This document shows positions 2,705-56,220 of a DNA stretch of 64,000 nucleotides, piece by piece. Source of the stretch: Naegleria gruberi (taxonomy: Eukaryota); NCBI GenBank assembly GCA_000004985.1, contig GG738886.1, one strand, 5' to 3'. Each line of letters starts with the position of its first letter. The first letter of the stretch is position 1. Under the pieces are notes generated by a model, which did no database searches, was not told where the DNA came from, and was given only the letters and a program-made list of their open reading frames with translations. The position numbers and the translations under genes were made by a program.

Positions 2705-3953
2705 ATGAATGATGAATTGAAAGTTAAATGTCAATTAATTGATCTTTATGATGGAGATGGCACTGATCGATCGCAACAATTATTGAAAGGAAAATACAAT
2801 GATGAACGGTTCAATCATAGGAGGGAATTTATGAAGGTTTTTGTTAGGATTAGGCCTCCAAGTGTGCGGGATTTAGAATTACATCAGGGTGTGGCGATCC
2901 AAACAAATGATGATACCAAAATCGAATTAACATATCAGCACACTAATACAACAAGAGTTGGAGGAGTAGAAGGAGAAGGATTAACAGCTTGTGATCAAAA
3001 AGAAGAATTTATTGTGGATCGAGTATTTGACTTCGGACGGAATAATGATAATATTTGGAATTATTTTGGAGAGGAAATGGTTCATCAATGTTTGAAAGGA
3101 TTTAATTATTCTTTAATTTCATAGTGAGTATTTGAAATTCGATAACAAATATGGAATTATTGATGAATATTAGTGGACAAACAGGATCTGGGAAAACTTT
3201 CACCCTTCTTAATAATGAAAATGGTCTTGTTCCACTGTTTGGAGAAAGTATCTTTAGACAATTGGAAGATAAAGGCAATTTTTCACAGCTGGAATATGTT
3301 ATTGAGATGAGTGTTCTTGAAATTTATAATGAATCTTGCTATGACATGTTAAATAACAGTACAATTAAATTGAAAATAAGGTAAATAGGATTGTTGGTCA
3401 TGATTCTAATGTTAGTAGAGAGACAAGGGATGAAGGTGTTCATGTTGAAAATATAACACAACATCAAGTTAATTCAAAAGGGCAAATTGAGGAATTATTA
3501 AAAACAGCTCGTAAAAATTTGATGTTCAAGCAAACGAATATGGGACAAGCATCGTCGAGAGGAACTTTGATTTACTCATTTAGACTCTCACAACTGAACT
3601 CAAATGGACTAGTAAGAAAATCTTTTATTCATTTTGTGGACCTTGCTGGAAGTGAAAGACTAAAGAAGACTAACACCACACTACTTGAAAGAAACAAGTC
3701 CATTAGCACCTTCTCGAAGATTCTCCACGCCTTAGACTGTAGCCAACCTAAGGCATATCACATTCCATATAGAGAATCCAAGTTGACTCGTCTTTTGCAA
3801 GAGAGTTTGGGTGGAAATTGCAGGACAATAATGTTATTCCATGTATCTCCTTCCAATAGCTGCAGCCAAGAATCTCTTTCAACACTAAGAGAAGCAAAAT
3901 CAGCCAAATATGCAATGACCAGGCCAAAAAAACCTCATCACGAAAGCAAGTAA
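2705..3953 (+). CDS. Kinesin motor domain protein; exons approx 2705..3123, 3174..3380, 3416..3953 (start may be 2630)
   Basis: Kinesin signatures: MKVFVRIRP; the P-loop ISYGQTGSGKTFTL is reconstituted across a 50-nt GTGAGT..TAG intron (3124..3173); SSRGT; switch II DLAGSER; IPYRESKLTRLLQESLGGN. A second short intron (3381..3415) joins ...KLKI to SRETRDEGVHVENI. The motor sits at the C-terminal end of a ~420-aa protein. Confidence 0.8.
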
Positions 3954-4147
3954 AAAAATTTTGTTTTGCAAATTCTATTTTTATTTCACTCAAAATTTTA
4001 AGCTGTATGCCTTAATGCAAATTACATGTTTTTCCAAAGCAAAAAAAAAGGAAACAAGTCACAACCCGCTTTTTTTCCTCCCTGTTAAATTACCAGTGCA
4101 TTTGCAGTTAATACTTAATAAGACCAAAAGAAAATTTCACAACTAGC

Positions 4148-5579
4148 ATGAAGATCAACAGCACCTCCTCTATCATCATTAATACTCACATCATGAAACA
4201 ACCAGAAGTTAATTTTGAGGAACAACCAGTTGTTCTTTCCTTGGATGTAACATTTTCAAGCCCATTACTTAAATCAACAATTGACAATCAAAGAAAGCTC
4301 CATGAGAATTGGTGTAAGGAGGCAGATCTATTCAGAAATGCCATTATCACTCCTTTGGAATATTGTGTCAGAGAAGAATCAAGATTTGGAAAACGAAAGC
4401 AAGAATATTCTCCTTATGTAATTAAAGGTCAAGAATTTATTTACATGAAAAAGTTAAAGAATCTTAGTGAGGACATGGAAGAATGCTCCACAACAAACGA
4501 ACGATACGATTCACCAGTGAGAGATGGTGTTGAACAATCCAAAAAGAAGAAACGTTTCTATTGTGAACAAGTTGATAGTTTGGAAGCCATTCCAATTGAA
4601 TTGAGAAACAGCAAAGAGTACATGATGGAACGTGTTAAGAAAAATGGTTTGTATCTTCATTATGCTCATCCTAGATTGCTGTTTGATCAAGAATTGTTAT
4701 TGGAAGCTATACGAAATAACGGAGATGCTTTCAAATATGTTCCATTTACATTTAGAAAAGATGAAGAATTCTTGAAAAGAGCTCTTGAATTGAATGGTGA
4801 TGCTTTTATGTTTCTTCATGGGGAGATGAGAAAGAGGAAAGATTTATTCGATTCTGCCATAATAACAAGTGGAAGAGCATTCGAACATGCAGACAATTCA
4901 ATAAGAACTGGTTATTTCAATGCAGTTCAAGCTGTGTCAAAGTACTGGAGCAATCTTTCACATTAGAGCATCTGTACCTTACTATTCTAATTTAATTAAT
5001 ATTATTCTCAGTTCTAATCAATTACAAGACTCTGAATTGGTTAATTCAAACTTGATCACCGATAGGTATGATGCATTGACATATCTTGACATTTCACACA
5101 AGGCATTTATTATGGCAACAAGAGAATGTAGGAATGATGAGGCAGTAATTATAAAGGCATTGAGAAAGAATTTAATCATTGCCAACTATCTCACTATTGA
5201 ACAATGGAATATTATCATTAACCATCCAATTATCGTGGAAATAGTTCGATTCCCAGCTCTAGAAATGAATCTTGATACAGCAACACTCATTCTTGAAAAT
5301 TCAACGTTGCTTGAGAATGTTAGAGCTCTTGTTAAAAGATATCCATCATTAACAAAAAGTTTAACCAATTTGGAAATGATATTTGATCCTTTCATATTGA
5401 GATATTTACCAAAAAGAGAACAATTTAGAATTCTCTTTGGTAAAGAAGAAAAATTCAAAAGTACTGCACAAGTTACAGACTTTGATATGAACTTGAATTT
5501 GCTGAAAGAGAGATTTGCAAAATCACATCCTGGATTAGTTATTCCTTTCCACAGATTTGGATTAATACAAAAAAAGTAA
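4148..5579 (+). CDS. DUF4116-like repeat protein (tandem ~35-aa repeats AL.YAS...LR.D.E.VL.AV..NG)
   Basis: Two overlapping ORFs (4148..4966 and 4920..5579) in different frames. They are joined either by a putative 25-nt intron (4942..4966, GTACTGG...ATTAG) or by a frameshift. Repeats such as NGLYLHYAHPRLLFDQELLLEAIRNNGDAFKYVP resemble the DUF4116 unit and are paralogous to the genes at 53058..54786 and 60668..62425. Confidence 0.55.
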
Positions 5580-8663: not shown

Positions 8664-10584
8664 TTATTGAATGAAACATTTCTTATTGGCATCATCCAAC
8701 TGGTTTTCTTCACCTTGTTTCACCCCATCATGATCAGTTGTTGCAACTGTGTTTGAAATGGTGTGACGAGGAGAAGGATTGGTTGTGTGGCCTTCGATAC
8801 TGACATTGTTGTTGGCCATCATTTGTGAAATTTCCTTCAAATTGTCCTCAGTTAAGCCAGCAGTGAGAGCTTTGGAATTTGCATAATATTTGGATTGTCT
8901 CTTGTCCTGGGATTGATTTACATTGATACGAAAATAGGGTGTTTCTTGATCTGCTTCTGCAAAACTCTTTTCAACCAGTTGTTTCATCTTTTCATCATCT
9001 TCTGATTCATTGATACTGCTTGTGGTTGATTCATCGTCCATAGATTGATTATTTTCCTTTTGATTAATGGTATGACCGTGAATGTGAGTGCCTGATTCCT
9101 CCTCTAGTTCATAATGATTCATATCATAGTGATGCTTATCCTCTTCACCAATATCCTCTTCATATTCATCGTGTTCACTCTCATTGGAAATTTCACTTTC
9201 TGTGAATTTTTCAAAATAGTCACGATCCTGAACTGTTGGTACGAATTTTGGAACCTCAATAATCCTCTGTTTAAATGCAACATTATAATCCTCTGCCAAA
9301 CTTTCACATGTTTCATGAGCTTCATCCAAAATTCCCTTCGGTGTCACTTGCACAACCTTAGCAAAAATAGTATTAATGACATCAGTGCACAATTCATCAA
9401 TTCCTTCACCTGTTGCAGCACTTACTTCCCTATAAATAATATTCTTTTCTTTTGCCATTTCAATTGCTTCCTCTCTGGAAACATCTCTCTTTGAATCGTT
9501 TGAACCATTGTTTTCCTTTCCTGAATCAGTACTTGATGAGGAAAGTGTTGAATTGTGTCCAAATCGAGTAGATCCATGATACTTTTGAAAATTATCACAC
9601 TTATTTGCAACTAGGAAAATTGGTAAATTAGGATTTCTCTTTCTAATCATTGGCAACCACTTGTTGATTGAATTGAAATAGGAACGTTTACTTCTCACAT
9701 TGAAAACAATAATAACACAATGTGTAAATGTTCCATACATTCTGCAAACTTTCACATATGTTCCAATATCAACAATATTCGAATCATAAATTTGTAATTG
9801 AATGGAATTGTTTGGTTCGTAGGTGTGTTGAATGAGTGATGAAAATTGGGACATTCCCTCCGTACTAATTAACTTTTTAATGTATTCCTTCTTGGGTGAT
9901 TGTCTAGTGAGTAATCTAAACATGACACTTGACTTTCCGACTATTGTGAAAATGTTGATGCTAAATATTATTCGAAAGTATAATGATAAACTTACCCTTC
10001 TTATCTCCCAAAATCATGACTTTAAATTGATAATTATGAATCAAAGGAGAAAAGTAACACGGATTATTATAAAGTGGAATATTAGATTCGTCCAAAGTTT
10101 CGTCCACTTTCTCTTCATTAGTGTCTTGTTGCTCTGAGAGTAATATTTGTTTCATATCCTTTTCAACATCATAATTTCTCTCAATACCTCTCCTCCAACG
10201 CCATCTCGAATATCTCGTCAATAGAAAGTACAATTCTTTCCATTCATACTTCTTCAATGATGGTACTGCAGCAACTGTTGGTGAAGAATTTAATGATGTT
10301 GGTGATGATTTATTCAATAGTGATGGAGATGATGAGAATGTTGCAACTGATGGTGATGATGGTGTGAATTGATGAGGAAGAAATTGAAGTTTTAATTCAC
10401 GTTCCAACAAGAGTTGCCACAAGTTGGAATCCTCCAATGCTTGATTCCACTCCTTTGAGATGGTGTAGCACTGTTTGAGAATGGTTTTTGTATCGAGGAA
10501 GAGCATAATGTTACGAAAGGATAGCAGTGGACCTGTATCGGCTCCTGATGTTATTGGAAAGAATGGAGTAGCGTCTCGAGGCAT
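8664..10584 (-). CDS. F-box + Rab/Ras-like small GTPase fusion protein; join(10584..9996,9940..8664)
   Basis: N-terminal F-box: LSFRNIMLFLDTKTILKQCYTISKEWNQALEDSNLWQ. A 55-nt GTAAGT..TAG intron (9941..9995) reconstitutes the P-loop ILGDKKVGKSS. Switch I is ISTEG, G4 is LVANKCD, and switch II is degenerate (LQIYDSNIVD in place of WDTAGQE). A long acidic/Ser-rich C-terminal tail follows. Confidence 0.65.
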
Positions 10585-44079: not shown

Positions 44080-47000
44080 TTATTCGTAAACCTCAGCAAA
44101 GATAGTGTTGGAACGACCAAATATTTCTGGTGAGTACATTTCTTCACATTTGGTTGGTGGAATAATGAAGGATCCGATTTGAGTGGCACGACACAAATGT
44201 TTGAAAGTGTGAGTTCCTTCCCAGAGCAAACTGGAGAATGCTTCAACACGTTCATCTCTACTATTGACATGTTCATACCATGGATAGTTCCACCAACATC
44301 TAGATTTCTTAACTTCACCTGAAGGAGCGTTACCTTTCAATTCAGGATTAATTGGTTCCAAACCAGCAGGTAAAAAGTCAACCAAAGCAACATGATAACG
44401 TCTACTGGTATTAGTGAATGTAATGATAACTCTAACCAATTCACCAGCTTTAAATTTCCAACAGTTTCTTGCCTTATCAAATTGAGCATGAGATGGATCA
44501 GTAACACCCTCATAGCTTCTCTCAATTTGGAATCCATAATCAAGAGCTGGTAATAATAAATTCTTAGGAGCATAGTCCATTCCAATTCTATAGTACAATC
44601 TACCAGGACCTTCCTTCAAGATGGCCAATGTTTGTGCACCTTCAGTGGTAGTAAGTTGTCTCATTGGAATAGTAAGAACATTTTCATCCTTATTTCTTCC
44701 CTTGAAAACTTGTTCTCCACAATAATCTTCTCCAAGCCACATCTTGGCAGTGAAATCAGGAGTGACACCTTCAAAGACATGGAAATAACTGTTGAGAGCA
44801 AGAAGGATGAAAACATTTTCTTGAGTATTGCCCCATCTTCCCTTCTTCTTATGAGCTAAAAGTCCCTTGACAACCTTTGGAATGAGATTATTTTGTGGTA
44901 CCATATGAATGAGCATTTCCAAACAAATTCCATCAGTTCTTCTATCACTGTGCAACATGATAAGCTTGCTGCTTTGCTCATCTCCATAGCTTGTAACAAA
45001 GTTGGCTGTTTGAGCAGTTTCATTGACTCTCATTAAAATATAATTCACAATTTCAGTCGATTTTGTTGTGGCTTCCTTTCCATTGGCAAAGAACATTGCT
45101 GAAGCAGTCCAAGACAAAGTTTCAAGACAAGTATCCTTCAATCCACATTCTGAATATAATTGGTCAGCTTTTTGTTTGGCTCTTGAATCTCCCAATAGGG
45201 CGGCAACATAATAAGCATATGATCTAATGGCATATTTTGATGAAGGAGAGTAATATGTATCACGAATATAATTCTCAATATCACAGAGGAAATTAGTGAG
45301 TTTGGAAACAACATTATTATTGAGAGAATAACCTGCAATCTTGGCTCTAGCAAAGGCATGACCTACGTGGCAAGAAAGGTAAGGACTGACTGAATAATCA
45401 CTTCTGTAAGTCCACCATCCGAATCCACCATTTGGAAATTGTCTTCCATTCAAAATACCCAACGATAATTGTACAGTAGAGTTAAGCATAATTGAGCTTG
45501 GAATATCCTTGACCTTGAATGCTTGAAGTACATCCTTGAGAGCAACAATTGATAAAATCTTACTTGACAATTGTTCACAACATTCAAAGGAATAGTTGTA
45601 AACATAAAGGAAGGCATCAGTCAAGGCAGACAATGCTGTACTACTGGTAGTGATTTGTAAGCCACCAAATTGAGGATAGATATTTTCTGGAGCCTTAACT
45701 GGTTGGAATGTAGTGCAATCACCATCCAATTCACCATAATGAGCAAATGCTTCTGTGGTTGCTGGTGTGAATACTCTGAGTTCCTTTTCAACAGCATCAG
45801 AAAAGTTGATCAATTCGGAAACAGAAACAGCAACTTGGAATTTAGAAATACCAACCTTGGTTGCTTGCATTGGGAATCTCAATTCAGCTCTCTTAAGAGC
45901 AGGGATTTTAACATTCAAACCTCTCTTGGATGGATCCAACAATTCGAGTCCATCATAGGCAACAGCAATATGAACATTCAAATCAATAAGGGTTTGATTT
46001 TGTAAAACACAAGCAAATTCTGCCTTATCACCAAAGTTCAAAAATCTTGGAAGGGAAGGTCTAATTGCTAGTGGCAATTGTGCAACAATTGAAGATTCTC
46101 CCAAGCCGTACAAACTATCTAGTTTGGTAGAAACAGCTGTAATTCTGTATCTCGTCAAATTGTCAGGTAATTTGAATGGCACTCTGGCCTTGCCTTGAGC
46201 ATCTGTTACACATACTGGACTAAAGACAGCAACTGGATTGAAATTCTTTCTGACAACAATGGCAGATCCAACTTCCTCACCTCCTTCACATCCACCAGCA
46301 TCGTCATTACATTCTTCGCACTCTTTTTCCTCACATCTCTTTTTGGATTTCTTACAACTTTTCCTTTCTTGCACTTCTTCTTGGCAATCACAATCATCAT
46401 AACAACAACAGGAACGACATAAACATCCTTCACACTTGCAACATTCACATTCATCATCATCACATTCTTCCTCATCAGAACTATCTTCAGGAGGAGATTG
46501 AATGTTGATATTATCAAAACTCTTGACAAATACGTGGTCTCTCAATGAGAACTCTGAGAAGCTTTGGCCAGTACCAACTATGAATGTGCTCAAAGGATTA
46601 GATATTCTATAGCCAGTCAATGAAAGAACAGCTTCATCAACAGCAACGAGACAAACCTCACTTCCAGCTTGTGGTTTAGAGTTTTCCTTGTCAGTTACCA
46701 AAACATCAACAAAGGTCTCAACACCTGGAGTAACAAATTGCTTCTCTGGAGTGACCAATACATCGAGTTGATGCACTTTGGATGAGACACCAATATAACA
46801 AGTTCCATTTGCGTACGCAGGTTGTTTTGGGAGGTCGAGAGGTAATCCAAGAGAATCACTTCTTGATTCACTACCTTGGAGCATTACACTAACTGTTACA
46901 TTTGGAATGTGTTCTTTGGTAATTTTGAGAGTGAATTCAGTTGATCCAACTTCTGGATCAATGGTGATTGGAATATTATCGATTACAGAATTGAGGCAAA

Positions 47001-50000
47001 CAGTAACAACACCATTAGCCTTACCGTCGAATGGAGATTGAATCAAAATTTTGGCTTCTTCTCCAATTTCATACATTCCTTTGTCTGCAACCAAGAGGGC
47101 TTGTTGCTTTGAAAGTCTTGAACCAACAACATCCTTCTTTGATTTACCACCAGTTACGTATAGGGAGTTATTTGAAGAGTTAGTTAAACCGGTTTCTGTA
47201 TCCTTAATTCTCAATGTGAACTTGTAGTTACCACCCTTATCGAAACTAATAGGATATTTGACTGGTTCAGATTCAGACTTGAATACCTTCTTGAAAACTT
47301 CAACAGATTCATGAACAACACTGAACCCCTTCTTCTTTTCAACGGTTGTTGTAGCAACCAGTTCCATATCAATACCAGGAATAGTATTACCTTCAAGATC
47401 AGTGGTAACCATGAATAAATTGGTTTGAACATTTGGTTTAACAAACATCTTTTCAATCTTCATTCCACAATAATATTTGCAAGGGTGAACAGTAAATGTA
47501 GTGGAATCATTAATAGTTTGACGATTAATATCTTGAACCGATGTTTCAACAGTAATGTTCATTGGAGATTTCTCTTGTCTTTCGGTTTCATCGAAGAGGA
47601 TTGCAATTTCATGTTCACCATCAGAATTACAAACACCTTCAAATGTAACTGGTTTGTAATTTTCACTTCCATAAGTATCATAACACCAATAACGATAAAA
47701 TGGATTTGAGATGTAAGTGGAGAAGTTGAAACCAGAAAAGTTTGGTGGGGTATAACTTGTCTTTGATTGTTTGATAACATAGGAACACTTTGAACCAGAG
47801 AGACCTCCACCTGAGTAGTATGCTGCTTGGGTCTTGAGAATTGTTAAGTTATTAACAATATATCTGCATGGTGGGACAGATGTTGAGACTGTAAATTCTG
47901 GAGTACGGAACTCTTGTACATTAAAGTTTGTATGCATTGTCCTACCGTTGAACTCAATGGAATGAGAGCCCAAGTTAACATTGTCTGGAATTGAAAACTT
48001 AATATCAAAGGAACCATGTTCTGAGATGGTGTATTTTCCAGTGTGATATTTTGCACCTCTAGAATCTTTAACAATGTATTCATAAGTTCCCTTTTTTGGT
48101 AGAGTTGGAATAGTTCTTGATCCGTACTTTTCAACCTTGAGTTCTCTACAAATACCCTTGATGAAAATCTCTTCTCCAGGTTTATAGAGTCCTCTATCGT
48201 TGAAAATATTATATGCTAATCTATCATCAATTCTGTAGTGATAAAGGTATAAATCTGGAATAAAGCAGGTATCATTCAAATAAGATCCAATCAGTGTATA
48301 TTCACTTCCGTTTGAGGTGTGACTAAGAACAGCAATTCCTGTTTCAGAGTCTGGTTTTGTGCTAAATGATGGAAGGAATTTCTTTTGTTTGAAACTAACA
48401 TCAGATTTGATGACAGTTCCATCAATTAAAGAATTGGCCCAACAGTAAACATTACCTGTTCGTGTATCGAAAAAGCCATCCATTGCCATCTTTGTCACCT
48501 GAATCCAGGAAATGTAAACTGGTCTGTATTTCCAATTATCTTTCCAATGTGTTTTGGATGGTTCAACTGCAACCAAAAGTTGACCTAACATGTCATTTGG
48601 ATGTTGTAAGTATTGGGTCAAGTCAATTTCTGTATCAACTGGTTCATCTGGTTGACCATTGGTATTTACCATAGTGTCAAGAACTTTTTTTCCAGAAAGA
48701 GATAATGTTGCATTGGAATAAGCATCATAGTAGAAAACATTGTTTGAATAATCACCTGGTTTAACTTGATAAACTTGGACATGGATAGCTTCAAGATTTA
48801 CACTGAATACGGAGAAGGATGGTTTAGTATTGACAGTAGGATCAATAACCATCATTCCGGTCTTGTAGGCTTGTAAAGATTGAGCTGCTGGTCCAACTTG
48901 GAAAGTAAAGTTATTTTCTCCTGCAAGTTTTTGTCCCCAAACATCTGTTATTTGACCAGAGAGTTGAACTTGGTATGTGGTACGTCCCTTAATATTACCA
49001 GATATTGTCAAGTAATTTCCAGATGGATTAATACGTAATCTTTCAATAGGTGGTTGAATACTTATATGTTCCTCATTTAATAATTCAATATCAATATTAT
49101 TACTAAATGTGAAAGAGAATGGTTCCAATGGAAGCTTTCCACCAGTATGGGAAGTAACTTTGAATTCTGGATAGTTTGTAGCTGTGAAGGAAATATCTTT
49201 TTCTGTTCTCAAAGGACCTTCAATAGATCTGGCTCCTTGCAATAATGTTATAGCGAGGGTTTCTGACAGGGCTACTCTCCTACTTGCTACATCAATTTCA
49301 ATCCAAACATGTCTATTTGGAGCAGAATTTTCCAATTTGTAATTTACAGAATTGTACAATGAGGATGATCTCTTTTCCAATGAAGATTCTTTAAGCTTTC
49401 CTTCAATATAACTCTTTACAACTGAAGTACGGCCATCATTTTGAACCAGCTTGCAAGAGTATCCAGGTATATTTACACTAGAAAAGATTTGGTTTGGATC
49501 AATATCTTGATCAAACTCCATATAAACAAATGGAAATTCGTTAATTGGAACTGCATGGTAACTATTTGGAAGATAGTTGAGCATTGTCAATCTAGGTGTT
49601 TCAAATTTAAAGGAAACATTCTTATCCAATACTCCTCCAACACTAGACTTGGTTTTTTCACAATCAATAGTGACTGTGTATTCCGTAGACATGTCAAATC
49701 TATAATTTGGTTCAAAGAATAAAGTCTTTGCACCCATCCATCTAAATCTACCACCATTCTTTGGGAATGGTTCAATTTTTACAAAAGAAAAATCTTGATC
49801 ATGAACATCTTCAACACCAGACACAGCAACCATTGGCTGAGAGAATGTGATGGAAATATGTGGCACTGATCGATCAACTGGACCTTCTGGCAAATATCTC
49901 ACCACTGCCAAACTTGATCCCAACAATGCTTCTTCTTCCTTTCTCACTTGTTCTGGTTTTTCCAATTTCTCTTCTGGTGGGAATGGAATTTCATTAACAT

Positions 50001-50334
50001 CAGCACTTCTTGGAGGTTTGAGGGTTTTTTCTCTCATGAAAAAGTCACCTTCTTCTGATGTTGATTTTTGAATTTGTGGCAATCTGGCCAATAATTTCTC
50101 TGTCAATTCATCACCAAGAGATTCAACACTTGCACCACTCTTTTGATCCTCATCCTTCTTGACAGAAGTTGCCTTTGATCCAAGTAAAATCATGGCAGTA
50201 GAATCTTCAGGTGTTGGCTCCCTAACATGAATATTCAACCCAACAGTGTAATCTTCATTATTTGCACCAAGAATGCTTGTCTCACTGCAAGGTTCCTCCT
50301 CTTCATAATCCATATCATCATCATAAAACACCAT
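44080..50334 (-). CDS. Alpha-2-macroglobulin/thioester-containing protein family member, single exon about 2085 aa
   Basis: Thioester-like region NYSFECCEQLSSKILSIVAL (CxEQ in place of GCGEQ). The thioester-domain region FPNGGFGWWTYRSDYSVSPYLSCHVGHAFARAKIAG and the domain order fit the A2M family. The acidic N-terminus (MVFYDDDMDYEEEEP) has no signal peptide. Confidence 0.8.
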   Translation of the reverse strand: MVFYDDDMDYEEEEPCSETSILGANNEDYTVGLNIHVREPTPEDSTAMILLGSKATSVKKDEDQKSGASVESLGDELTEKLLARLPQIQKSTSEEGDFFMREKTLKPPRSADVNEIPFPPEEKLEKPEQVRKEEEALLGSSLAVVRYLPEGPVDRSVPHISITFSQPMVAVSGVEDVHDQDFSFVKIEPFPKNGGRFRWMGAKTLFFEPNYRFDMSTEYTVTIDCEKTKSSVGGVLDKNVSFKFETPRLTMLNYLPNSYHAVPINEFPFVYMEFDQDIDPNQIFSSVNIPGYSCKLVQNDGRTSVVKSYIEGKLKESSLEKRSSSLYNSVNYKLENSAPNRHVWIEIDVASRRVALSETLAITLLQGARSIEGPLRTEKDISFTATNYPEFKVTSHTGGKLPLEPFSFTFSNNIDIELLNEEHISIQPPIERLRINPSGNYLTISGNIKGRTTYQVQLSGQITDVWGQKLAGENNFTFQVGPAAQSLQAYKTGMMVIDPTVNTKPSFSVFSVNLEAIHVQVYQVKPGDYSNNVFYYDAYSNATLSLSGKKVLDTMVNTNGQPDEPVDTEIDLTQYLQHPNDMLGQLLVAVEPSKTHWKDNWKYRPVYISWIQVTKMAMDGFFDTRTGNVYCWANSLIDGTVIKSDVSFKQKKFLPSFSTKPDSETGIAVLSHTSNGSEYTLIGSYLNDTCFIPDLYLYHYRIDDRLAYNIFNDRGLYKPGEEIFIKGICRELKVEKYGSRTIPTLPKKGTYEYIVKDSRGAKYHTGKYTISEHGSFDIKFSIPDNVNLGSHSIEFNGRTMHTNFNVQEFRTPEFTVSTSVPPCRYIVNNLTILKTQAAYYSGGGLSGSKCSYVIKQSKTSYTPPNFSGFNFSTYISNPFYRYWCYDTYGSENYKPVTFEGVCNSDGEHEIAILFDETERQEKSPMNITVETSVQDINRQTINDSTTFTVHPCKYYCGMKIEKMFVKPNVQTNLFMVTTDLEGNTIPGIDMELVATTTVEKKKGFSVVHESVEVFKKVFKSESEPVKYPISFDKGGNYKFTLRIKDTETGLTNSSNNSLYVTGGKSKKDVVGSRLSKQQALLVADKGMYEIGEEAKILIQSPFDGKANGVVTVCLNSVIDNIPITIDPEVGSTEFTLKITKEHIPNVTVSVMLQGSESRSDSLGLPLDLPKQPAYANGTCYIGVSSKVHQLDVLVTPEKQFVTPGVETFVDVLVTDKENSKPQAGSEVCLVAVDEAVLSLTGYRISNPLSTFIVGTGQSFSEFSLRDHVFVKSFDNINIQSPPEDSSDEEECDDDECECCKCEGCLCRSCCCYDDCDCQEEVQERKSCKKSKKRCEEKECEECNDDAGGCEGGEEVGSAIVVRKNFNPVAVFSPVCVTDAQGKARVPFKLPDNLTRYRITAVSTKLDSLYGLGESSIVAQLPLAIRPSLPRFLNFGDKAEFACVLQNQTLIDLNVHIAVAYDGLELLDPSKRGLNVKIPALKRAELRFPMQATKVGISKFQVAVSVSELINFSDAVEKELRVFTPATTEAFAHYGELDGDCTTFQPVKAPENIYPQFGGLQITTSSTALSALTDAFLYVYNYSFECCEQLSSKILSIVALKDVLQAFKVKDIPSSIMLNSTVQLSLGILNGRQFPNGGFGWWTYRSDYSVSPYLSCHVGHAFARAKIAGYSLNNNVVSKLTNFLCDIENYIRDTYYSPSSKYAIRSYAYYVAALLGDSRAKQKADQLYSECGLKDTCLETLSWTASAMFFANGKEATTKSTEIVNYILMRVNETAQTANFVTSYGDEQSSKLIMLHSDRRTDGICLEMLIHMVPQNNLIPKVVKGLLAHKKKGRWGNTQENVFILLALNSYFHVFEGVTPDFTAKMWLGEDYCGEQVFKGRNKDENVLTIPMRQLTTTEGAQTLAILKEGPGRLYYRIGMDYAPKNLLLPALDYGFQIERSYEGVTDPSHAQFDKARNCWKFKAGELVRVIITFTNTSRRYHVALVDFLPAGLEPINPELKGNAPSGEVKKSRCWWNYPWYEHVNSRDERVEAFSSLLWEGTHTFKHLCRATQIGSFIIPPTKCEEMYSPEIFGRSNTIFAEVYE

Positions 50335-50573
50335 TTTCTCTCCTATTAAAATTAAATAAAAATTATAATTATCAATCAAAAGAATGTTGCTGTATTTTTT
50401 TTGATCTGTTGGGAGTTGGAGATCGGCACCTATTTTATGCCTGTTCGGATGAACTTGTGTGGATAAGGAGGCGAACAGGGAATCATTAAAAGGAAGAACA
50501 TAATGAGCATTTCAAGATGTAATAACTCTCATTGTGTGAATGGCACACTGAGAGTAATTGATGAACGAAAAAT

Positions 50574-51700
50574 CTATTCTAAAGGTAGTCTATAAACAAA
50601 GTTATCTATTGCTGCCTGGTATCGTAGACGGTCTTGCTGAGATTGTTCTTCATAGTATTGTAATTGTTGTGTGGAGAGTTTTTCCCATGCAGCAGAGATT
50701 TCTGAATAATCAATATCCCATGTTGGATTGATTTTTCTCTTCTCTTCTGTGTACTCTTCGGTAAAGACAAGAAATGGAGCTCTAATGAAATGGGTTCTCA
50801 TTAAATAGGAAGCTTTGTCTTTTCTTGATTCTGGAATGAGTGCCATGTGCAAGTCATTGAATAATTTCACTGGTTGAGTGATTAATCCATTACAATTAGG
50901 TGATCCTGTAATTTGTAAAAAATCTGATAGTAATTTCTCATTTTGAATTTCCATATTACTAAAGGTTGCATGAGTAAGGAAGACGTTAGTTATTACGCCA
51001 TAAAATTCACCATTATCCCTCATGCAGACCAAAAATCGATGAGTACAGAGGAAACAAAATCCAACCCTGAATACATTTTGTAATCTCCACTCTTTTAACA
51101 CAAGTTTCAATTTTTCTTTTTCATCATCTAACAAGGCACCAATTGTTAATTTCATAGTTTCATCAAGATCTTTCAGTCCTATCTTTTTCAAACTCGCAAT
51201 TAAACTCAATACTTTCCAATAAAAATGTTCTTTCCAAGAATATCCCAATAAACTCAATTTTTTCACAGCAGATGAATCTTCCAATATGTTGAAAATTTCT
51301 CCTAATGGCATTGGAGATCCTGCAGACAAATCAACTCGTTGATAATTATCCAAATCACATCCAATCCTATCAAGAGAAAGTAATGGGAACTCTTCACTCA
51401 AATTCTCAACATGACACACAATATTAGAAAAGTAATATTTGCAAAACTGCTCACTCGTAATAAAGTCATTCCACTTCCGACAGACCATTCTACACGGATC
51501 AGTATTTAATGATGATGATTTAGAAACTTCTTCATGATCGGAATTCTGAATTAGTAAATGAATAAATCGATAGCTATATAAAATATTATTGATATGAAAT
51601 AAATACTAACACACAATAACAATTCACACGGATGAAAATATGTAAAGACATGAACAATAATTTCATCTTGTTCAAACCAGGCCTTTGCTTGCTGTTCCAT
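50574..51700 (-). CDS. F-box protein; join(51700..51611,51534..50574)
   Basis: Exon 1 is MEQQAKAWFEQDEIIVHVFTYFHPCELLLC (the N-terminal half of an F-box). After a 76-nt GTTAGT..TCAG intron, exon 2 continues ...MVCRKWNDFITSEQF (the C-terminal half). The acceptor choice is uncertain. Confidence 0.45.
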
Positions 51701-51857: not shown

Positions 51858-52772
51858 TTATTGTAGGGAGCATCGCTTTTTCTTTCTTTTTGGTACAGAT
51901 ATTGCATGAGTCATTAATGCTGATTTTATACACAACTCTACAAACTGTGTCATAATTTCATCACCATCCTCCAATGATGAAATTTCATAATAGGTCAGGC
52001 ATTTGTGTTCCTTACAAAACTTGATAGCATTCTGTACAGTAACATCATCCTCTTTGGTTTTTAAATCCTTTTGAGTTCCTAATATTAACATTGGAGTGTG
52101 TGGCATGTAGTGATTGGCGTAGGGAAGCCACTTTGATTTGATTCTTTCTAAACCGTATACACGTCTGAATGGGAATGTTGCCACAAAGAGATCACTTCCA
52201 AACATTAAGAGAGGAATCATTCGTTCATAATCCATATCAGAAACATCTACAAAATCAATACAGAACTTTCTTCCCTCAATGGAAATGTGATATTGGAATT
52301 GATTATCTAAATTGTATTTACCCAACCTCTTCAATAGATCGGTTACACCAGAATGGTGATCACCTAAAACAGCCACTTTGAAATGAGGTAGTGGACATTT
52401 CAATTCTTCCACTGATTTTTGTAAAATTTTGTCATAGCTTTCGTATTCATAATTTTCAGTAAATTTCAATAATTCCATTCCACACACTTGCAAATAGTGA
52501 AGATAATAATTTTCTTTCGGATCTTCTTTCATTAAAATAGAATAGTGGCATGCATATCCATATTCCAATACTGGTTTTACTTTCGAATAATTTTCCAATT
52601 TCCTATCGTAATGTTTCTTCCACAATAAATCACTCGATCCAATCACATAAAACTCCTTACAAACCATCATGTAATTCACCAAACTCTTCACATTAATAAA
52701 CGAACAAATCAGCATCCACTCATCATTCGAAACACGTTGATGATGATTCATTTTTTTGTTATCAAATTTCAA
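51858..52772 (-). CDS. F-box + Rho-family pseudo-GTPase fusion with C-terminal CAAX box
   Basis: N-terminal F-box DEWMLICSFINVKSLVNYMMVCKEFYVIGSSDLLW. The Rho/Rac-like domain aligns with Rac1 throughout (FKVAVLGDHHSGVT...IDFVDVSDMDYERMIPLLMFGSDLFVATFPFRRVYGLERIKSKWLPYANHYMPHTPMLILGTQKDL). The P-loop Lys/Ser and switch II DTAGQ are lost. It ends with the CAAX box CSLQ. Confidence 0.6.
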   Translation of the reverse strand: MKFDNKKMNHHQRVSNDEWMLICSFINVKSLVNYMMVCKEFYVIGSSDLLWKKHYDRKLENYSKVKPVLEYGYACHYSILMKEDPKENYYLHYLQVCGMELLKFTENYEYESYDKILQKSVEELKCPLPHFKVAVLGDHHSGVTDLLKRLGKYNLDNQFQYHISIEGRKFCIDFVDVSDMDYERMIPLLMFGSDLFVATFPFRRVYGLERIKSKWLPYANHYMPHTPMLILGTQKDLKTKEDDVTVQNAIKFCKEHKCLTYYEISSLEDGDEIMTQFVELCIKSALMTHAISVPKRKKKRCSLQ

Positions 52773-53057
52773 CTGTCCTTTTTCTTTCTTCCAAAACTAA
52801 TTGATCTTGTAATTATTATTGATTTGAATTGTAAAATTAAGATTTATTAGCAAAAAAATGAAAAGAAAGGTGGAATGCATCGAATCAGGCAGAGAGAATG
52901 ATACTTCGGAAGTTTATCAACCTAAGCAACAGTATAGAAAATTAACTTCCACTTCATCTCCTTCTGCCTCGACATTATCTACTTCTTCATCGGGGATTGT
53001 TGGGAATTCTTGTCATAATAATTATTTATTTGATGATGAATTTAATATAATGGATCG

Positions 53058-54786
53058 GTGACTGTAATTTTGAGTGATTTCTTGTTGAGAGGAATGTCCT
53101 ATGATGATACTGATCATTTTCCTCAACAACATCGATGGCTAACAGGTAAATTCCAATCTCAAACCAAAGGGAAGCTTAAGTGGATGAAAAGAAGGGATGA
53201 ATTGTTTGAGAAACGTTCGTCATTCATTCCGATAGAATTTTGCCATGATAAGGAATTGGTTTTGCACATGTTTAAAACAATAGAAATAGATGCACATGTA
53301 TTTGATTGCATTCAAGCTGATGTGATAGACAATGATTTGCTTGTTAGAATTATGAATAGATTGAATGATAGTTCAGTTAGATCTGAAGCAATAGATAATT
53401 TTATAGAACTTTTCAAAAGGTATAATATTACCTTAGACGGAAATTCAAAGGAAGGAAAGGAATTTGTTTCAGCCTATGAGATGGAAAATGGCAAGTATGA
53501 AACAGCCTTAAAACTATTCATAGCAAGTGGGAACGTCTCTAATATATTAAGACAAGATGTTGATTTCATTTACGACGTATTTAAACATTTTAATGGAGAT
53601 GAAAGAATGTTACATATTGTACTTTATTTTTGTATGGCAGATAAGGATGCTTTGCTTAGGTTCGCAGAGATTAATCCACATGTGGTGGCTTGTGCATCAC
53701 AAGAATTTCAACAAGATGAGAACTTTCTTAGAGAACTCATTGATACGAACACTGACTATCTGAAACATTTAATATTTGCTACCGAACACGACAAGAATAG
53801 TGCAAAAGCAAAGAAATGCAGGGAAATATTATCAAATGATTCGTTGAGAAGAAAGATGGAGAATGACGAGAAGTTTATACTACATTATTGTGCTGTCGAT
53901 CCTGAACTTTTCAGGTTGATCTCTCCAAAATTACTAGTTGACAAGAAATTCTTATTCAACATATTGGAAAAGATAGAGAAATGCCCTTTTGCATTGTCTA
54001 CAGTTTTGAATCATATTCCAGAAGTCATGAAAAGCGATTTTGATATTATGTTAAAGGCAGTTAAGATAGATCCTATCTCTTTTATGCATGCTTCTGATCA
54101 GCTAATGCATGACCAAGAATTTGTATTGAAATGTCTTGGACGGTATTCTGATCTAATATTTCCAATGATTCCTAATGAATTCCTTCAAGATAGAGAATTC
54201 CTTATGGAGATGTTGGAAATAAATGGAAGCTTACTTGAGTATGCTCCTTCTGAATTCCAAGGTAAGTTAATAATATTACACATTCTAACAATGTTAAAAA
54301 GATGATGAAGAGATGGTTCTTCAAGCCTTAAAATCTGACGGTGGTTCAATTGATTTTGTCTCTACACGGCTTAAAAACGATAGAGATTTTCTATTAAAAG
54401 CCAAGAAGCAAACAAATCTATATGTGAACCTGCTATCGAGGGCTATTGTAAATGATGAATTCTTACTGGAATCATTAGAATCACCATTTGTGGATGATGT
54501 TTATGAAGAAATAGAAGCACGAGGCTTAAGGGACAATTATGACTTTATGAAAGAAGCCATAAAAAGAGTGTATAGTTACACTGAATTACCAGATAATTTT
54601 AAAGCGTTGAAGGAAATGTCATTATTGGCAATATCAGTTGATGGTAGAGAATTAAAGTATGTTCACCATAAGGATGACCTTGAGGTTCAAAAGGCTGCCG
54701 TGAACCAAAATGGATATTTCATTAAGCAATCACAAGAATTGTTGGACTATAGGTTAGAATGTGCATATTTTGGATGCAAGATTTGA
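53058..54786 (+). CDS. DUF4116-like repeat protein; join(53058..54261,54302..54786), with a possible 5' exon at 52858..53061
   Basis: Repeats such as FILHYCAVDPELFRLISPKLLVDKKFLFNILEK and LLEYAPSEFQ|DDEEMVLQALKSDGGSIDFVS. A 40-nt GTAAGT..AAAAAG intron (54262..54301) keeps the repeat periodicity. Confidence 0.55.
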
Positions 54787-55128: not shown

Positions 55129-56220
55129 ATGAAACCATTCACCACTTCTACTTCATCACTGGTATATTTAATGGTGATAAGTTGTGTGGCATGTTCATGC
55201 GTATGTATGATGGTTCATGCAGCCTCATCCACCTCTCAGTGCAGTAACATTACCATCCAGACTCATGTTGATGAGTTGGAGAGGGAAATTGCAGAGCTCA
55301 CATGTATTCAAAACAGACTCTCCAATGTCATCTCAGCCCTCAACATGAGTGCTTCAGTGAATGGCCAAATAATTAGAACAAGACAACGACAATTAGAAAA
55401 GATTTCCACTGCCTTATCCTTACTTGTTCAGGAGAGCACGTTCCTTAAGAATGTAACAAATCCAGTTTCTACTATTGTTTCAACAACTTCAAACATTGTC
55501 TCTACAAGTCAAGGGTTTATGTTTGGTGATGGAAGAAAAGCTCCTTCTTGTAGACAATACAGATATCCTGACTATCCATATCAATACGAAAATCAAGGAA
55601 GTGGACTCTATGTTATTGAGCCATCTCCAAATTTGATCATGGTTGTGTATTGCGATATGACTACTGATGGAGGAGGGTGGACACTTATTGCAGGTATTCG
55701 TTCTGATTATGAAGGCATTCACTATCACACATTTGAGGATTCAACAGCTATTTCAAGCTCGAATGTGACTTCGTTCCATATCAAGACACAAGCTCTGCTA
55801 GCCAACTCCACTCAAGTTAGAGCTGCCTCAGATGCAACTACAAATCCACAAACTGCTTTTTATACTTCCAATTGGCCATACAGTGCCTCTTGTACCATAA
55901 CCACTAGCTTGAGAAATGCCATCCAAAATACTCCAACAAGTGTTAATGGAGATTTACCAGCAAGTTGTAAGATCCTAACTGGATTGACTCAAGTTCCCAA
56001 TATTTTCACATATGGAAAAACATGTAATGGCCATTCGACAGGTTTTCGTTTGGGTTTCGCACATGGGAATTGTGTTGGACATTTGAGTGAATCAAGTTTT
56101 ACAACATTTTCTTTCAGTGGAGCTGCAGAAGGTGGTTTAAGCAGTGCAAGTACTGAAAAAGGTGTTTTTTATAGTTTTAATGGTGAAAAAAGCAGAAATG
56201 GAGCCATTTTTTTAAGATAA
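55129..56220 (+). CDS. Secreted fibrinogen-related-domain (FReD) protein with N-terminal coiled coil
   Basis: Signal peptide LVYLMVISCVACSCVCMMVHA and a heptad-rich segment. FReD core: SCRQY...GSGLYVIEPSPNLIMVVYCDMTTDGGGWTLIAGIRSDYEGIHYHTFEDS. Confidence 0.65.
   Translation: MKPFTTSTSSLVYLMVISCVACSCVCMMVHAASSTSQCSNITIQTHVDELEREIAELTCIQNRLSNVISALNMSASVNGQIIRTRQRQLEKISTALSLLVQESTFLKNVTNPVSTIVSTTSNIVSTSQGFMFGDGRKAPSCRQYRYPDYPYQYENQGSGLYVIEPSPNLIMVVYCDMTTDGGGWTLIAGIRSDYEGIHYHTFEDSTAISSSNVTSFHIKTQALLANSTQVRAASDATTNPQTAFYTSNWPYSASCTITTSLRNAIQNTPTSVNGDLPASCKILTGLTQVPNIFTYGKTCNGHSTGFRLGFAHGNCVGHLSESSFTTFSFSGAAEGGLSSASTEKGVFYSFNGEKSRNGAIFLR

Follow-up and report, generated by a model that had tools for sequence, protein, structure and literature searches.

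The minus strand of the analysed window, a stretch of 64,000 nucleotides from Naegleria gruberi contig GG738886.1, carries a real gene whose product is built of three parts: an N-terminal F-box, a Rho-derived G domain and a polybasic tail with a CAAX box. We propose, with a probability of roughly 0.55, that this protein is a rapidly evolving representative of the F-box-Rac family of Heterolobosea (Naegleria/Willaertia) and serves as a membrane-held SCF receptor with a non-switching Rho-like binding module. The fusion of an F-box with a Rac domain is not new. It has already been catalogued and published, and the accession of the protein is given as 'Rac, F-box' in Table S8 of Herman et al. 2021 (BMC Biol, PMC8296547). 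In that paper GTPase-linked or GTPase-dependent ubiquitination, with a tie to ubiquitin ligases, is proposed, RhoBTB proteins are also reported to be present in Naegleria, and the motif losses of the protein and of its paralog receive no comment. A literature search for the pseudo-GTPase state of the protein found no published mention, and a search of main texts for the accession numbers gave no match. Since annotation and publication already cover both the gene and its architecture, the current practical value of the analysis is annotation refinement.

The coding sequence is complete and consists of a single exon.
51858..52751, minus strand: single-exon complete coding sequence, 297 amino acids plus stop (ORF list, 100% full-length match, independent call in strain contig L003)
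51858..51860, minus strand: stop codon of the F-box–Rho coding sequence

The mechanical ORF at 51858..52772 on the minus strand comprises 304 codons, and position 52772 is only a TTG start. The earlier note had taken this ORF as the span of the gene. The ORF is there, but the gene start is not, as the biological coding sequence begins at the first ATG and occupies 51858..52751. Its product is 100% identical over the full length to the N. gruberi protein XP_002674152.1 (EFC41408.1, D2VPB9), which carries the database name 'rho family member', and the strings previously quoted for it (GDHHSGVT, DVSDMD, the terminal CSLQ and the F-box string DEWMLICSF...DLLW) all occur in the translation. In the contig index, an exact look-up of the protein gave no entry. 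A missing upstream exon or a wrong gene model was considered and ruled out: a stop codon lies immediately upstream of the ORF, the neighbouring divergent ORF begins at 52858, at a distance of about 100 nt, and NCBI and an independent gene call arrive at the same 297-residue model. The upstream stop and the concordant calls also speak for the F-box being present, as no corrected model with upstream exons lacking it emerged.

The F-box is followed by a linker that leads into the G domain.
52608..52727, minus strand: F-box, residues 9-48 (Pfam F-box-like; family profile against the PDB; AF2 helices)
52389..52607, minus strand: linker, residues 49-121 (alignment A4; AF2 pLDDT profile)

The F-box has a predicted layout of three short helices followed by a conserved D..LWK motif, and it starts with Val-Ser in place of the canonical Leu-Pro. 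As a single sequence it matches the Pfam profile F-box-like (PF12937) with 25.0 bits (E 1.6e-5), which is only just above the curated cut-off of 24.3; the match to PF00646 (F-box) reaches 15.8 bits and stays under the cut-off of 20.5. PF12937 matches at the same position in seven relatives, with 15-22 bits. Comparison of a family profile of the N-terminal module with the PDB returned F-box proteins as the top 12 matches, among them FBXO3 (8e-8), beta-TrCP/FBXW1A (8e-6), FBXW11, FBXL5 and FBXW7, while the 13th match is not an F-box protein and is non-significant (E 1.1). The full-length AF2 model places helices at residues 9-17, 21-30 and 32-38, with pLDDT 63-80. When the N-terminal 123 residues were modelled alone, the pLDDT of 51 was too low for a fold search. 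Judged by these profiles, the F-box is divergent but recognisable, and we infer that it binds Skp1. The linker is homologous to that of other heterolobosean F-box-Rho proteins (alignment A4). It is mostly of low confidence in the AF2 model, with pLDDT 88-95 in its last ~20 residues.

The remaining larger part of the protein is the G domain.
51909..52388, minus strand: Rho-derived G domain, residues 122-281 (Pfam Ras; PDB sequence and Foldseek matches; phmmer; AF2)

The domain matches Pfam Ras with 36 bits (cut-off 21.6, E 6.3e-9). A phmmer comparison with small-GTPase reference sequences gave 52.0 bits for Cdc42, 47.9 for Rac1 and 40.1 for RhoA, against 6.6 for HRas, 6.2 for Ran, 5.7 for Rab5 and -0.8 for Arf1. 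The top 60 PDB sequence matches (Cdc42, Rac, Rho) and the top 50 Foldseek matches all belong to the Rho family, the best Foldseek match being EhRho1 (3REF). The TM-scores to Rho structures, normalised on the target, are 0.75-0.83. The AF2 model has a mean pLDDT of 80.3, with values mostly above 85 in residues 100-280 and the G domain, and it contains six strands and five helices in this domain. By sequence and by predicted structure, the G domain is closest to Rho/Rac/Cdc42 and not to Ras, Rab, Ran or Arf, and its fold is confidently predicted to be kept. The Rho insert is absent. Its place is taken by a gap of ~13-17 residues in alignment A1, as in HRas, and the AF2 model lacks an insert helix between beta5 and alpha4. 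The Rac/Rho alignment over the whole length that had been claimed is therefore right in the relationship but not free of gaps, as switch I is also ~10 residues shorter, and the supposed Rho-specific 'KWxPE' region actually reads KWLPY. A Rho GTPase without the Rho insert helix is known in EhRho1 (Entamoeba histolytica Rho1, PDB 3REF/3REG), which aligns over just 163 columns, without the insert. Unlike the N. gruberi protein, EhRho1 is a functional GTPase, whose crystals contained either GDP or a GTP analogue, and it has no F-box.

The nucleotide-binding motifs of the G domain are partly lost and partly kept.
52341..52364, minus strand: P-loop (G1), GDHHSGVT, residues 130-137 (direct read; alignment A1; identical in the strain allele P0151)
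52230..52247, minus strand: switch II (G3), DVSDMD, residues 169-174 (alignment A1)
52065..52076, minus strand: G4, TQKD (Cdc42: TQID), kept; Asp229 invariant in alignment A1
51972..51980, minus strand: G5, SSL (Rac1 and Cdc42: SAL), kept; Ser258 invariant in alignment A1

Compared with the Rac1 P-loop GDGAVGKT, Lys16 is replaced by Val and the small residues Gly12 and Ala13 by His-His, while Thr17 is retained as Thr137 and the loop is of canonical length. Of the Walker A Lys/Ser said to be lacking, the Lys is thus lost and the Ser/Thr position is not. The shortened switch I has no counterpart of Thr35 (alignment A1). In switch II, read correctly before as DVSDMD in place of DTAGQE, the alignment with Rac1 DTAGQED shows that Asp57 is kept (Asp169), Gly60 is changed to Asp and Gln61 to Met, with one residue fewer in the motif. 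Scoring of the five motifs accordingly gave a mixed outcome: the canonical forms of G1-G3 (GxxxxGK[ST], switch I Thr, DxxGQ) are not present and these motifs are degenerate, but not all five are dead, as G4 ([NT][KQ]xD) and G5 (SA[KL]) are represented by TQKD and SSL.

By this alignment, the residues required for a canonical GTP switch and for hydrolysis are gone (Lys of the P-loop, Thr of switch I, Gly and Gln of switch II), and the same key residues are lost in a paralog of 44% identity. The designation as a pseudo-GTPase, in the sense of a non-switching and non-hydrolysing protein, is therefore reasonable and the reading is plausible. The 'nucleotide-free' state that had been added to it is unproven. 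Since G4, G5, Thr137 and Asp169 are kept, the pocket may not be empty, and these residues would also fit weak or constitutive nucleotide binding. On this basis the protein could be an atypical Rho of the Rnd or RhoH kind, GTPase-deficient, constitutively loaded and locked in one state, whose F-box ties a permanently 'on' Rho to SCF. We regard this as somewhat improbable. It would be in keeping with guanine-specificity motifs that persist in this protein (TQKD, SSL) as well as in its paralog (TKLD, SAL), with Thr137 and Asp169 as Mg-coordinating residues and with the canonical P-loop length, but the Walker A Lys is changed to Val in both paralogs, Gly12 and Ala13 have become His-His, the paralog's P-loop is shorter by one residue, and switch I is truncated and devoid of its Thr. 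A Lys16 mutant of Rac1, K16R, was also reported to be deficient in GTP loading (PMC13236570).

The degenerate motifs recur in an independent metagenome assembly, ERR1078381, in which the allele of the gene (locus L003, protein P0151) differs at 9 of 894 nt and encodes an identical P-loop and switch II. A sequencing error in the P-loop is thereby ruled out, and the unusual motif described earlier is real. The paralog (P0002), which is nearly the same as the ACER01000199 sequence given in Table S8, has the P-loop GEG-NGVT, the switch II DLSDIG, the G4 TKLD and the G5 SAL. The pattern of GVT and D-x-S-D is common to both proteins, which implies that the degeneracy predates their duplication, and it has been maintained in intact ORFs. 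Apart from this paralog, a HMMER search of 1.84 billion representatives returned only one 81-residue fragment (60% identity; locus L004), which is a pseudogene with an in-frame stop and a frameshift. The same search found no ortholog in N. fowleri or N. lovaniensis. The gene was detected in N. gruberi and N. gruberi-like strains alone, and the best match outside the N. gruberi pair is 31% identical.

Such a distribution could be expected from a decaying or neutrally drifting copy without a function of its own, in which motif loss reflects relaxed constraint. The family is described as undergoing dynamic birth-and-death evolution in the supplement of PMC8296547, and the L004 pseudogene and the lack of a detected ortholog in other Naegleria species are in line with this. 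The strain-to-strain dN/dS of 0.47 is compatible with it as well, although the 9 substitutions (6 nonsynonymous and 3 synonymous) are too few to show purifying selection. We nevertheless consider decay very improbable indeed. Two strains have an uninterrupted ORF of 297 codons, and the paralog, at 44% identity, is likewise intact and shares the particular substitutions (GVT, D-x-S-D). Conservation extends to the hydrophobic core, G4, G5, the F-box and the CAAX box, and AF2 predicts the G-domain fold confidently.

The protein ends with a short basic tail.
51861..51890, minus strand: polybasic stretch and CAAX box, KRKKKR-CSLQ, residues 288-297 (translation)

The prenylation box CSLQ is found at the terminus as previously described, and it is preceded by KRKKKR. 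Together, KRKKKRCSLQ is predicted to be a prenylation and membrane-targeting signal. According to the CaaX rules, a terminal Gln favours farnesylation. The tails of the full-length relatives are likewise of the CxxQ type (CFLQ, CSIQ, CLIQ, CLMQ, CLVQ).

For the membrane-held receptor with a non-switching Rho-like module, we propose the following course of events. The C-terminal Cys would be prenylated, the final Gln making a farnesyl group probable, and this, together with the KRKKKR patch, would anchor the protein on a membrane. The F-box would dock the protein to Skp1 and hence to an SCF ubiquitin ligase built on Cul1. The Rho-like domain, which would no longer sense the gamma-phosphate or hydrolyse GTP, may act as a constitutive, switch-independent binding module that picks partners for the ligase. 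The protein would thus represent a permanently active version of the GTPase-dependent ubiquitination that has been proposed for the canonical relatives. A precedent exists in FBXL2 and FBXO10, prenylated F-box proteins that are SCF receptors at membrane compartments (PMC9988375, PMC11042265).

The F-box might instead turn the Rho-like protein itself into a client of SCF with a short life or a target of autoubiquitination, or bind Skp1 outside SCF, as yeast Rcy1 does, so that the output would lie in how much of the GTPase-like domain is present at the membrane. This is unlikely in our view, but the sequence does not discriminate here, and the readings are not exclusive, since F-box proteins generally are both receptors and autoubiquitination targets. 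The same idea was put forward for TbFRP, a FYVE-F-box-GTPase that is rapidly proteolysed (PMC3593210), and RhoBTB2 is a Cul3 substrate according to the reference list of PMC13236570. A further and decidedly speculative idea, which we hold to be quite unlikely, is that XP_002674152 and the ACER01000199 paralog are farnesyl-anchored, nucleotide-free Rho mimics. With an empty pocket, like a permanent dominant-negative Rho, they would trap Rho regulators (GEFs) at the membrane for Cul1 ubiquitination. If this were true, Rho signalling would be tuned by destroying its regulators, which is not described for any F-box protein.

The arrangement can be compared with several known systems. The RhoBTB G domain is also atypical. 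RhoBTB (Rho with BTB, a Cul3 adaptor) and Rab40 (Rab with a SOCS box, a Cul5 adaptor) likewise join a G domain to a cullin-RING adaptor (PMC13236570), whereas the adaptor of the N. gruberi protein is an F-box (Skp1/Cul1) that precedes the G domain, the protein ends in a CAAX tail, and the homology is confined to the G domain. TbFRP from Euglenozoa, the sister lineage of Heterolobosea, also has an F-box N-terminal to a Ras-like G domain and a membrane-targeting device. In contrast to the present protein, it uses a FYVE domain (PI3P binding) instead of prenylation, and its G domain is Rab18-like, not Rho-like; its authors found no Naegleria ortholog (PMC3593210). FBXL2 and FBXO10 share the combination of an F-box with a C-terminal CaaX, and their lipidation puts SCF on specific membranes (PMC9988375, PMC11042265, PMC5627969). 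Their substrate modules are LRR or other repeats and not a G domain, and they are geranylgeranylated (CVIL-type), whereas CSLQ predicts farnesylation. Retention of the G fold with loss of motifs and use in protein interaction is further shared with pseudoGTPases of class i (p190RhoGAP pG1/pG2, AAGAB, CENP-M) and with the nucleotide-binding but inactive Rnd and RhoH (PMC5593906, PMC12490416). Class i members have lost essentially all G motifs, whereas the present protein retains the Thr of its P-loop and the Asp of its switch II along with G4 and G5, so it is a candidate for either kind. If the pseudo-GTPase reading is true, the pair would be a natural case of a Rho domain that has ceased to be a switch and serves a membrane-bound SCF ligase as its fixed recognition module. 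The GTPase–cullin-adaptor fusions, represented by RhoBTB for Cul3 and Rab40 for Cul5, would thereby gain a parallel for Cul1.

Membership in the heterolobosean F-box-Rac family is evident from alignments A1, A2 and A4. The Naegleria and Willaertia proteins and the present one share the F-box, the linker, the Rho-type G domain and the CxxQ tail and are homologous throughout. Unlike these relatives, the protein and its ACER01000199 paralog have lost the insert as well as the Lys of the P-loop, the Thr of switch I and the Gly/Gln of switch II. The F-box-Rho relatives with a detectable P-loop motif (N. lovaniensis, Willaertia magna) all carry the canonical GxxxxGK[ST] and have the same N-terminal module and CxxQ tail, and the two that were aligned over the G domain (P0007 and P0018) have a long Rho insert. 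As far as Table S8 is accessible, its other F-box 'Rac' entries are canonical in GxxxxGK[ST] except for the ACER01000199 paralog (PMC8296547). Because the relatives keep a canonical G1, comparison within the family would lend itself well to the question of what such ligases gain from nucleotide control. The suggestion of a whole family built on dead small-GTPase scaffolds does not hold, as neither these relatives nor the second gene on which it relied, which keeps GKS, NKCD and SAA, agrees with it.

This second gene consists of two exons.
8664..10584, minus strand: Rab-like GTPase whose N-terminus weakly resembles an F-box and whose tail is CFIQ (splice reconstruction)
9996..10584 and 8664..9940, minus strand: exons of this gene
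9941..9995, minus strand: its intron

The spliced model has no exact match in the protein collection, and the NCBI model may differ. After splicing, the P-loop GDKKVGKS, the switch I Thr, NKCD and SAA are intact (alignment A5), and the sole degenerate motif is switch II, which reads DSNIVD. The gene had been regarded as another fusion with a dead GTPase; the intact motifs contradict this, and the F-box-like match is only 13.5 bits. The protein matches Pfam Ras with 83 bits, and its best phmmer match is Rab5.

The reading frame under study lies in a window that is AT-rich (GC about 34%), with mostly short ORFs densely packed on both strands. The ORF list and a protein match delimit it as follows.

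51858..52772 (-), mechanical ORF of 304 codons, opening with TTG
51858..52751 (-), coding sequence of the F-box-Rho gene from the first ATG, 297 aa

From end to end, the 297-aa protein matches XP_002674152.1 (EFC41408.1, UniProt D2VPB9) with 100% identity, an N. gruberi record named "rho family member" with precomputed F-box-like and Ras Pfam domains. This match marks the window as nuclear DNA of N. gruberi. A stop codon lies directly upstream of the ORF and a divergent ORF starts at 52858, so that there is no space for an unspliced N-terminal extension. The F-box-containing gene model of the earlier note stands, with its start at the first ATG. The gene is real, correctly modelled, already annotated as a single exon and already catalogued.

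Herman et al. 2021 (BMC Biol 19:142, PMC8296547) revised the annotation of Ras-superfamily proteins in N. gruberi and N. fowleri, and their Supplementary Material 4 names the F-box as the most frequent extra domain. In their Table S8, XP_002674152.1 is entered as "Rac ... F-box", directly above a paralog from scaffold ACER01000199; it is not among the one-to-one orthologs in the N. fowleri sheet. For this protein, the literature therefore already contains the F-box and Rho fusion, the CAAX tail and a proposed link to ubiquitin ligases. The supplement was searched for P-loops, hydrolysis and inactivity and mentions none of them, and the degenerate switch of XP_002674152.1 was not found in print. 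New here is the loss of both switch machinery and Rho insert in this gene and in one paralog, whereas all other recovered family members with a P-loop motif found keep the canonical one. This is a modest, testable refinement.

The G domain of the F-box-Rho protein is Rho-derived. Its C-terminal half matches Pfam Ras PF00071 (E 6.3e-9, 36 bits; curated cut-off 21.6 bits), and the best 60 PDB sequence matches of the protein are all Cdc42, Rac or Rho-like. In a local phmmer run against human reference sequences, the G domain scored 52 bits with Cdc42, 48 with Rac1 and 40 with RhoA, and at most 7 bits with HRas, Ran, Rab5, Rap1 and Arf1. The motif states were read from an alignment with Rac1, Cdc42, RhoA and HRas.

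G1 / P-loop: GDHHSGVT vs GDGAVGKT; Lys16 to Val, Gly12-Ala13 to His-His, Thr17 kept
Switch I: about 10 residues shorter, conserved Thr absent
G3 / switch II: DVSDM-DY vs DTAGQEDY; Asp57 kept, Gly60 to Asp, Gln61 to Met, one residue shorter
Rho insert: absent, with a gap as in HRas; present in Rac1, Cdc42 and RhoA
G4: TQKD vs Cdc42 TQID, kept
G5: SSL vs SAL, kept
KWxPE region: KWLPY, Glu to Tyr
Tail: KRKKKR-CSLQ, polybasic patch and CAAX box

All sequence strings quoted in the earlier note are correct, and its terminal prenylation box CSLQ is found in the translated tail. The claimed loss of the Walker A Lys/Ser holds for the lysine (Lys16 to Val); the Ser/Thr position is kept as Thr17. The alignment to Rac/Rho, described as running along the whole length, is interrupted by the shortened switch I and the missing Rho insert, the region cited as KWxPE actually reads KWLPY, and not all G motifs are dead, since G4 and G5 are kept.

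The fold is confidently predicted by AlphaFold2 on a 95-sequence alignment (mean pLDDT 80.3, pTM 0.71). The modelled G domain (about aa 100-280, pLDDT mostly above 85) comprises the usual six strands and five helices, and between its beta5 and alpha4 no insert helix is seen; the linker is predicted to be partly disordered. The best 50 Foldseek matches of the model are all Rho-family structures, the top one being Entamoeba EhRho1 (3REF), which we take to be a Rho without insert.

Sequencing error had been considered as a source of the unusual P-loop. In an unrelated metagenome assembly, ERR1078381, one contig (locus L003) carries this 297-aa gene too, with 9 nucleotide differences in 894 (6 nonsynonymous, 3 synonymous) and identical P-loop and switch II, which rules out an artefact. 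The dN/dS between the two alleles is 0.47, the nine changes being too few for interpretation.

Searched exhaustively with HMMER, 1.84 billion representative proteins yielded a sole close relative, P0002 (312 aa, 44% identity from the F-box through the tail). It is almost identical to the sequence predicted de novo by Herman et al. on N. gruberi scaffold ACER01000199 and is therefore a paralog. P0002 has the same specific degeneracy: its P-loop reads GEG-NGVT, its switch II DLSDIG, its switch I PAM where the references read PTV, and the Rho insert is absent; TKLD, SAL and CFLQ are kept. Domain composition and motif states are conserved in the paralog and in the allele. The shared degeneracy implies that the loss of the switch residues is older than the duplication, and it has persisted in two intact ORFs since. 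P0002 itself comes from a metagenome-derived N. gruberi-like strain (L001, ENA ERZ929261 contig of 6071 bp, 3255..4193), where its gene adjoins a glycine-cleavage T-protein gene (GCV_T); counted by eye, about 7 substitutions and one indel separate it from the NEG-M sequence printed in Table S8.

The third relative is a fragment of 81 aa with 60% identity.

996..1396, relative of the F-box-Rho gene on a Logan SRR25266747 contig (L004)

The homologous region has about 50-55% identity over the C-terminal 140 aa and ends in CLIQ. With an in-frame stop at the expected switch II, a frameshift and the F-box half missing, it looks like a pseudogene of another Naegleria-like organism. Next in rank among full-length relatives come F-box-Rho proteins from N. 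lovaniensis (P0007) and Willaertia magna (P0018, P0152-P0156, P0038). Their N-terminal modules are homologous, the full-length ones have CxxQ tails, the canonical GxxxxGK[ST] is present wherever the P-loop motif was found, and a long Rho insert is present in P0007 and P0018, for which the G domain was aligned. By ancestry, the F-box-Rho protein belongs to this heterolobosean F-box-Rac family. A rival reading sees the gene as a copy that drifts within a family evolving by birth and death. For many W. magna relatives (P0018, P0153, P0155, P0157-P0159, P0161, P0165) the locus tags are neighbours (ABK040_007636 to 007661) and lie on a single 790-kb contig, which suggests a gene cluster enlarged by tandem expansion; Kelch repeats also occur in some of its members.

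The N-terminal F-box of the earlier note is upheld. PF12937 (F-box-like) matches with E 1.6e-5 and 25.0 bits, above the curated cut-off of 24.3 bits, and at the same position in 7 relatives with 15-22 bits. Asp10, Ile15, Ser17, Leu24, Asp41, Trp44 and Lys45 are invariant across the relatives. When the family profile of this module was compared with all PDB sequences, the best 12 matches were all F-box proteins, at their F-boxes (FBXO3 8e-8, beta-TrCP 8e-6, FBXW11, FBXL5, FBXW7 and others), and the sole further match, the 13th, was non-significant (E 1.1). These matches make the F-box assignment sound by sequence. The AlphaFold2 model places three short helices here (9-17, 21-30 and 32-38; pLDDT 63-80). 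The F-box starts with Val-Ser in place of the usual Leu-Pro, and docking to Skp1 is a prediction. By analogy with the role proposed for the TbFRP F-box (PMC3593210), the module might instead govern the protein's own turnover.

The lost residues, namely the Lys of the P-loop, the Thr of switch I and the Gly and Gln of switch II, are those responsible for holding the phosphates, sensing the gamma-phosphate and catalysing hydrolysis; without them, a canonical GDP/GTP switch is impossible. PMC13236570 cites a Rac1 Lys16 mutant as deficient in GTP loading. F-boxes bind Skp1 and hence link to Cul1-Rbx1, and a CaaX box with terminal Gln is a farnesyltransferase-type signal that, with a polybasic patch, directs proteins to acidic membranes, as in K-Ras4B. 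The tail, the F-box and the lost switch residues lead us to read the protein most likely as a putative SCF receptor anchored to a membrane, or at the minimum as a protein that binds Skp1. CSLQ and KRKKKR would provide farnesyl-type anchoring to an acidic membrane, the F-box would dock Skp1 and thereby Cul1-Rbx1, and the Rho-like domain would act as a constitutive interaction surface and not as a switch. Alternatively, the G domain could be locked in a nucleotide-bound, Rnd-like state, for which the retained G4, G5, Thr137 and Asp169 speak. For the class i pseudoGTPases p190RhoGAP and AAGAB, the absence of nucleotide binding that this class requires has been shown experimentally; the F-box-Rho protein, judged by sequence, is given no class. 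As an SCF receptor it would resemble RhoBTB (Rho and BTB, Cul3) and Rab40 (Rab and SOCS box, Cul5) in working principle, a GTPase domain fused to a cullin adaptor, and also FBXL2 and FBXO10, F-box proteins put on membranes by a CaaX lipid, lipidation being predicted here.

The earlier note had proposed a family built on dead GTPases together with a second gene.

8664..10584 (-), second gene with one intron, 9941..9995 (GTAAGT...AATAG boundaries), from splice reconstruction

The proposed family is not supported. Splicing of the second gene restores an intact P-loop, GDKKVGKS; the Thr of switch I is kept, as are NKCD and SAA, and only switch II is degenerate (DSNIVD for DTAGQE). Judged from these motifs, the second gene does not encode a dead scaffold. 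In phmmer, its G domain matches Rab5 best; it carries an insertion of about 30 aa at the Rho-insert-equivalent position. Its F-box-like match is weak (13.5 bits), and an acidic, low-complexity, Ser/Asn-rich extension of about 230 aa past the G domain (8664..9400, -) ends in CFIQ. The supplement of Herman et al. (PMC8296547) describes a "divergent Rab-like clade with N-terminal extension and CaaX", into which this gene fits.

The gene adjoining the F-box-Rho gene (50574..51700, -) is also F-box-like in appearance, a short first exon (MEQQAKAWFEQDEIIVHVFTYFHPCELL...) being joined over an intron to MVCRKWNDFI...; its approximate splice gives sub-threshold F-box-like (20.4 bits) and F-box (18.7 bits) matches and a weak C-terminal HMG-box match (18.4 bits). 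Directly downstream of these F-box genes, a 2099-aa ORF (44080..50379, -) encodes bacterial-type alpha-2-macroglobulin domains (bMG10 9.6e-30, A2M_BRD, A2M, MG2, Big_5), which may reflect lateral transfer. Two neighbouring ORFs of 415 and 157 aa at 53058..54786 (+) contain DUF4116 repeats (9e-28 and 1.5e-18), the same 'DUF41' repeats that are fused to a Rab5 paralog in Table S8 (PMC8296547). The 363-aa ORF at 55129..56220 (+) matches part of the fibrinogen C-terminal domain (E 6.3e-6, 26.6 bits), covering profile positions 12-47 only.
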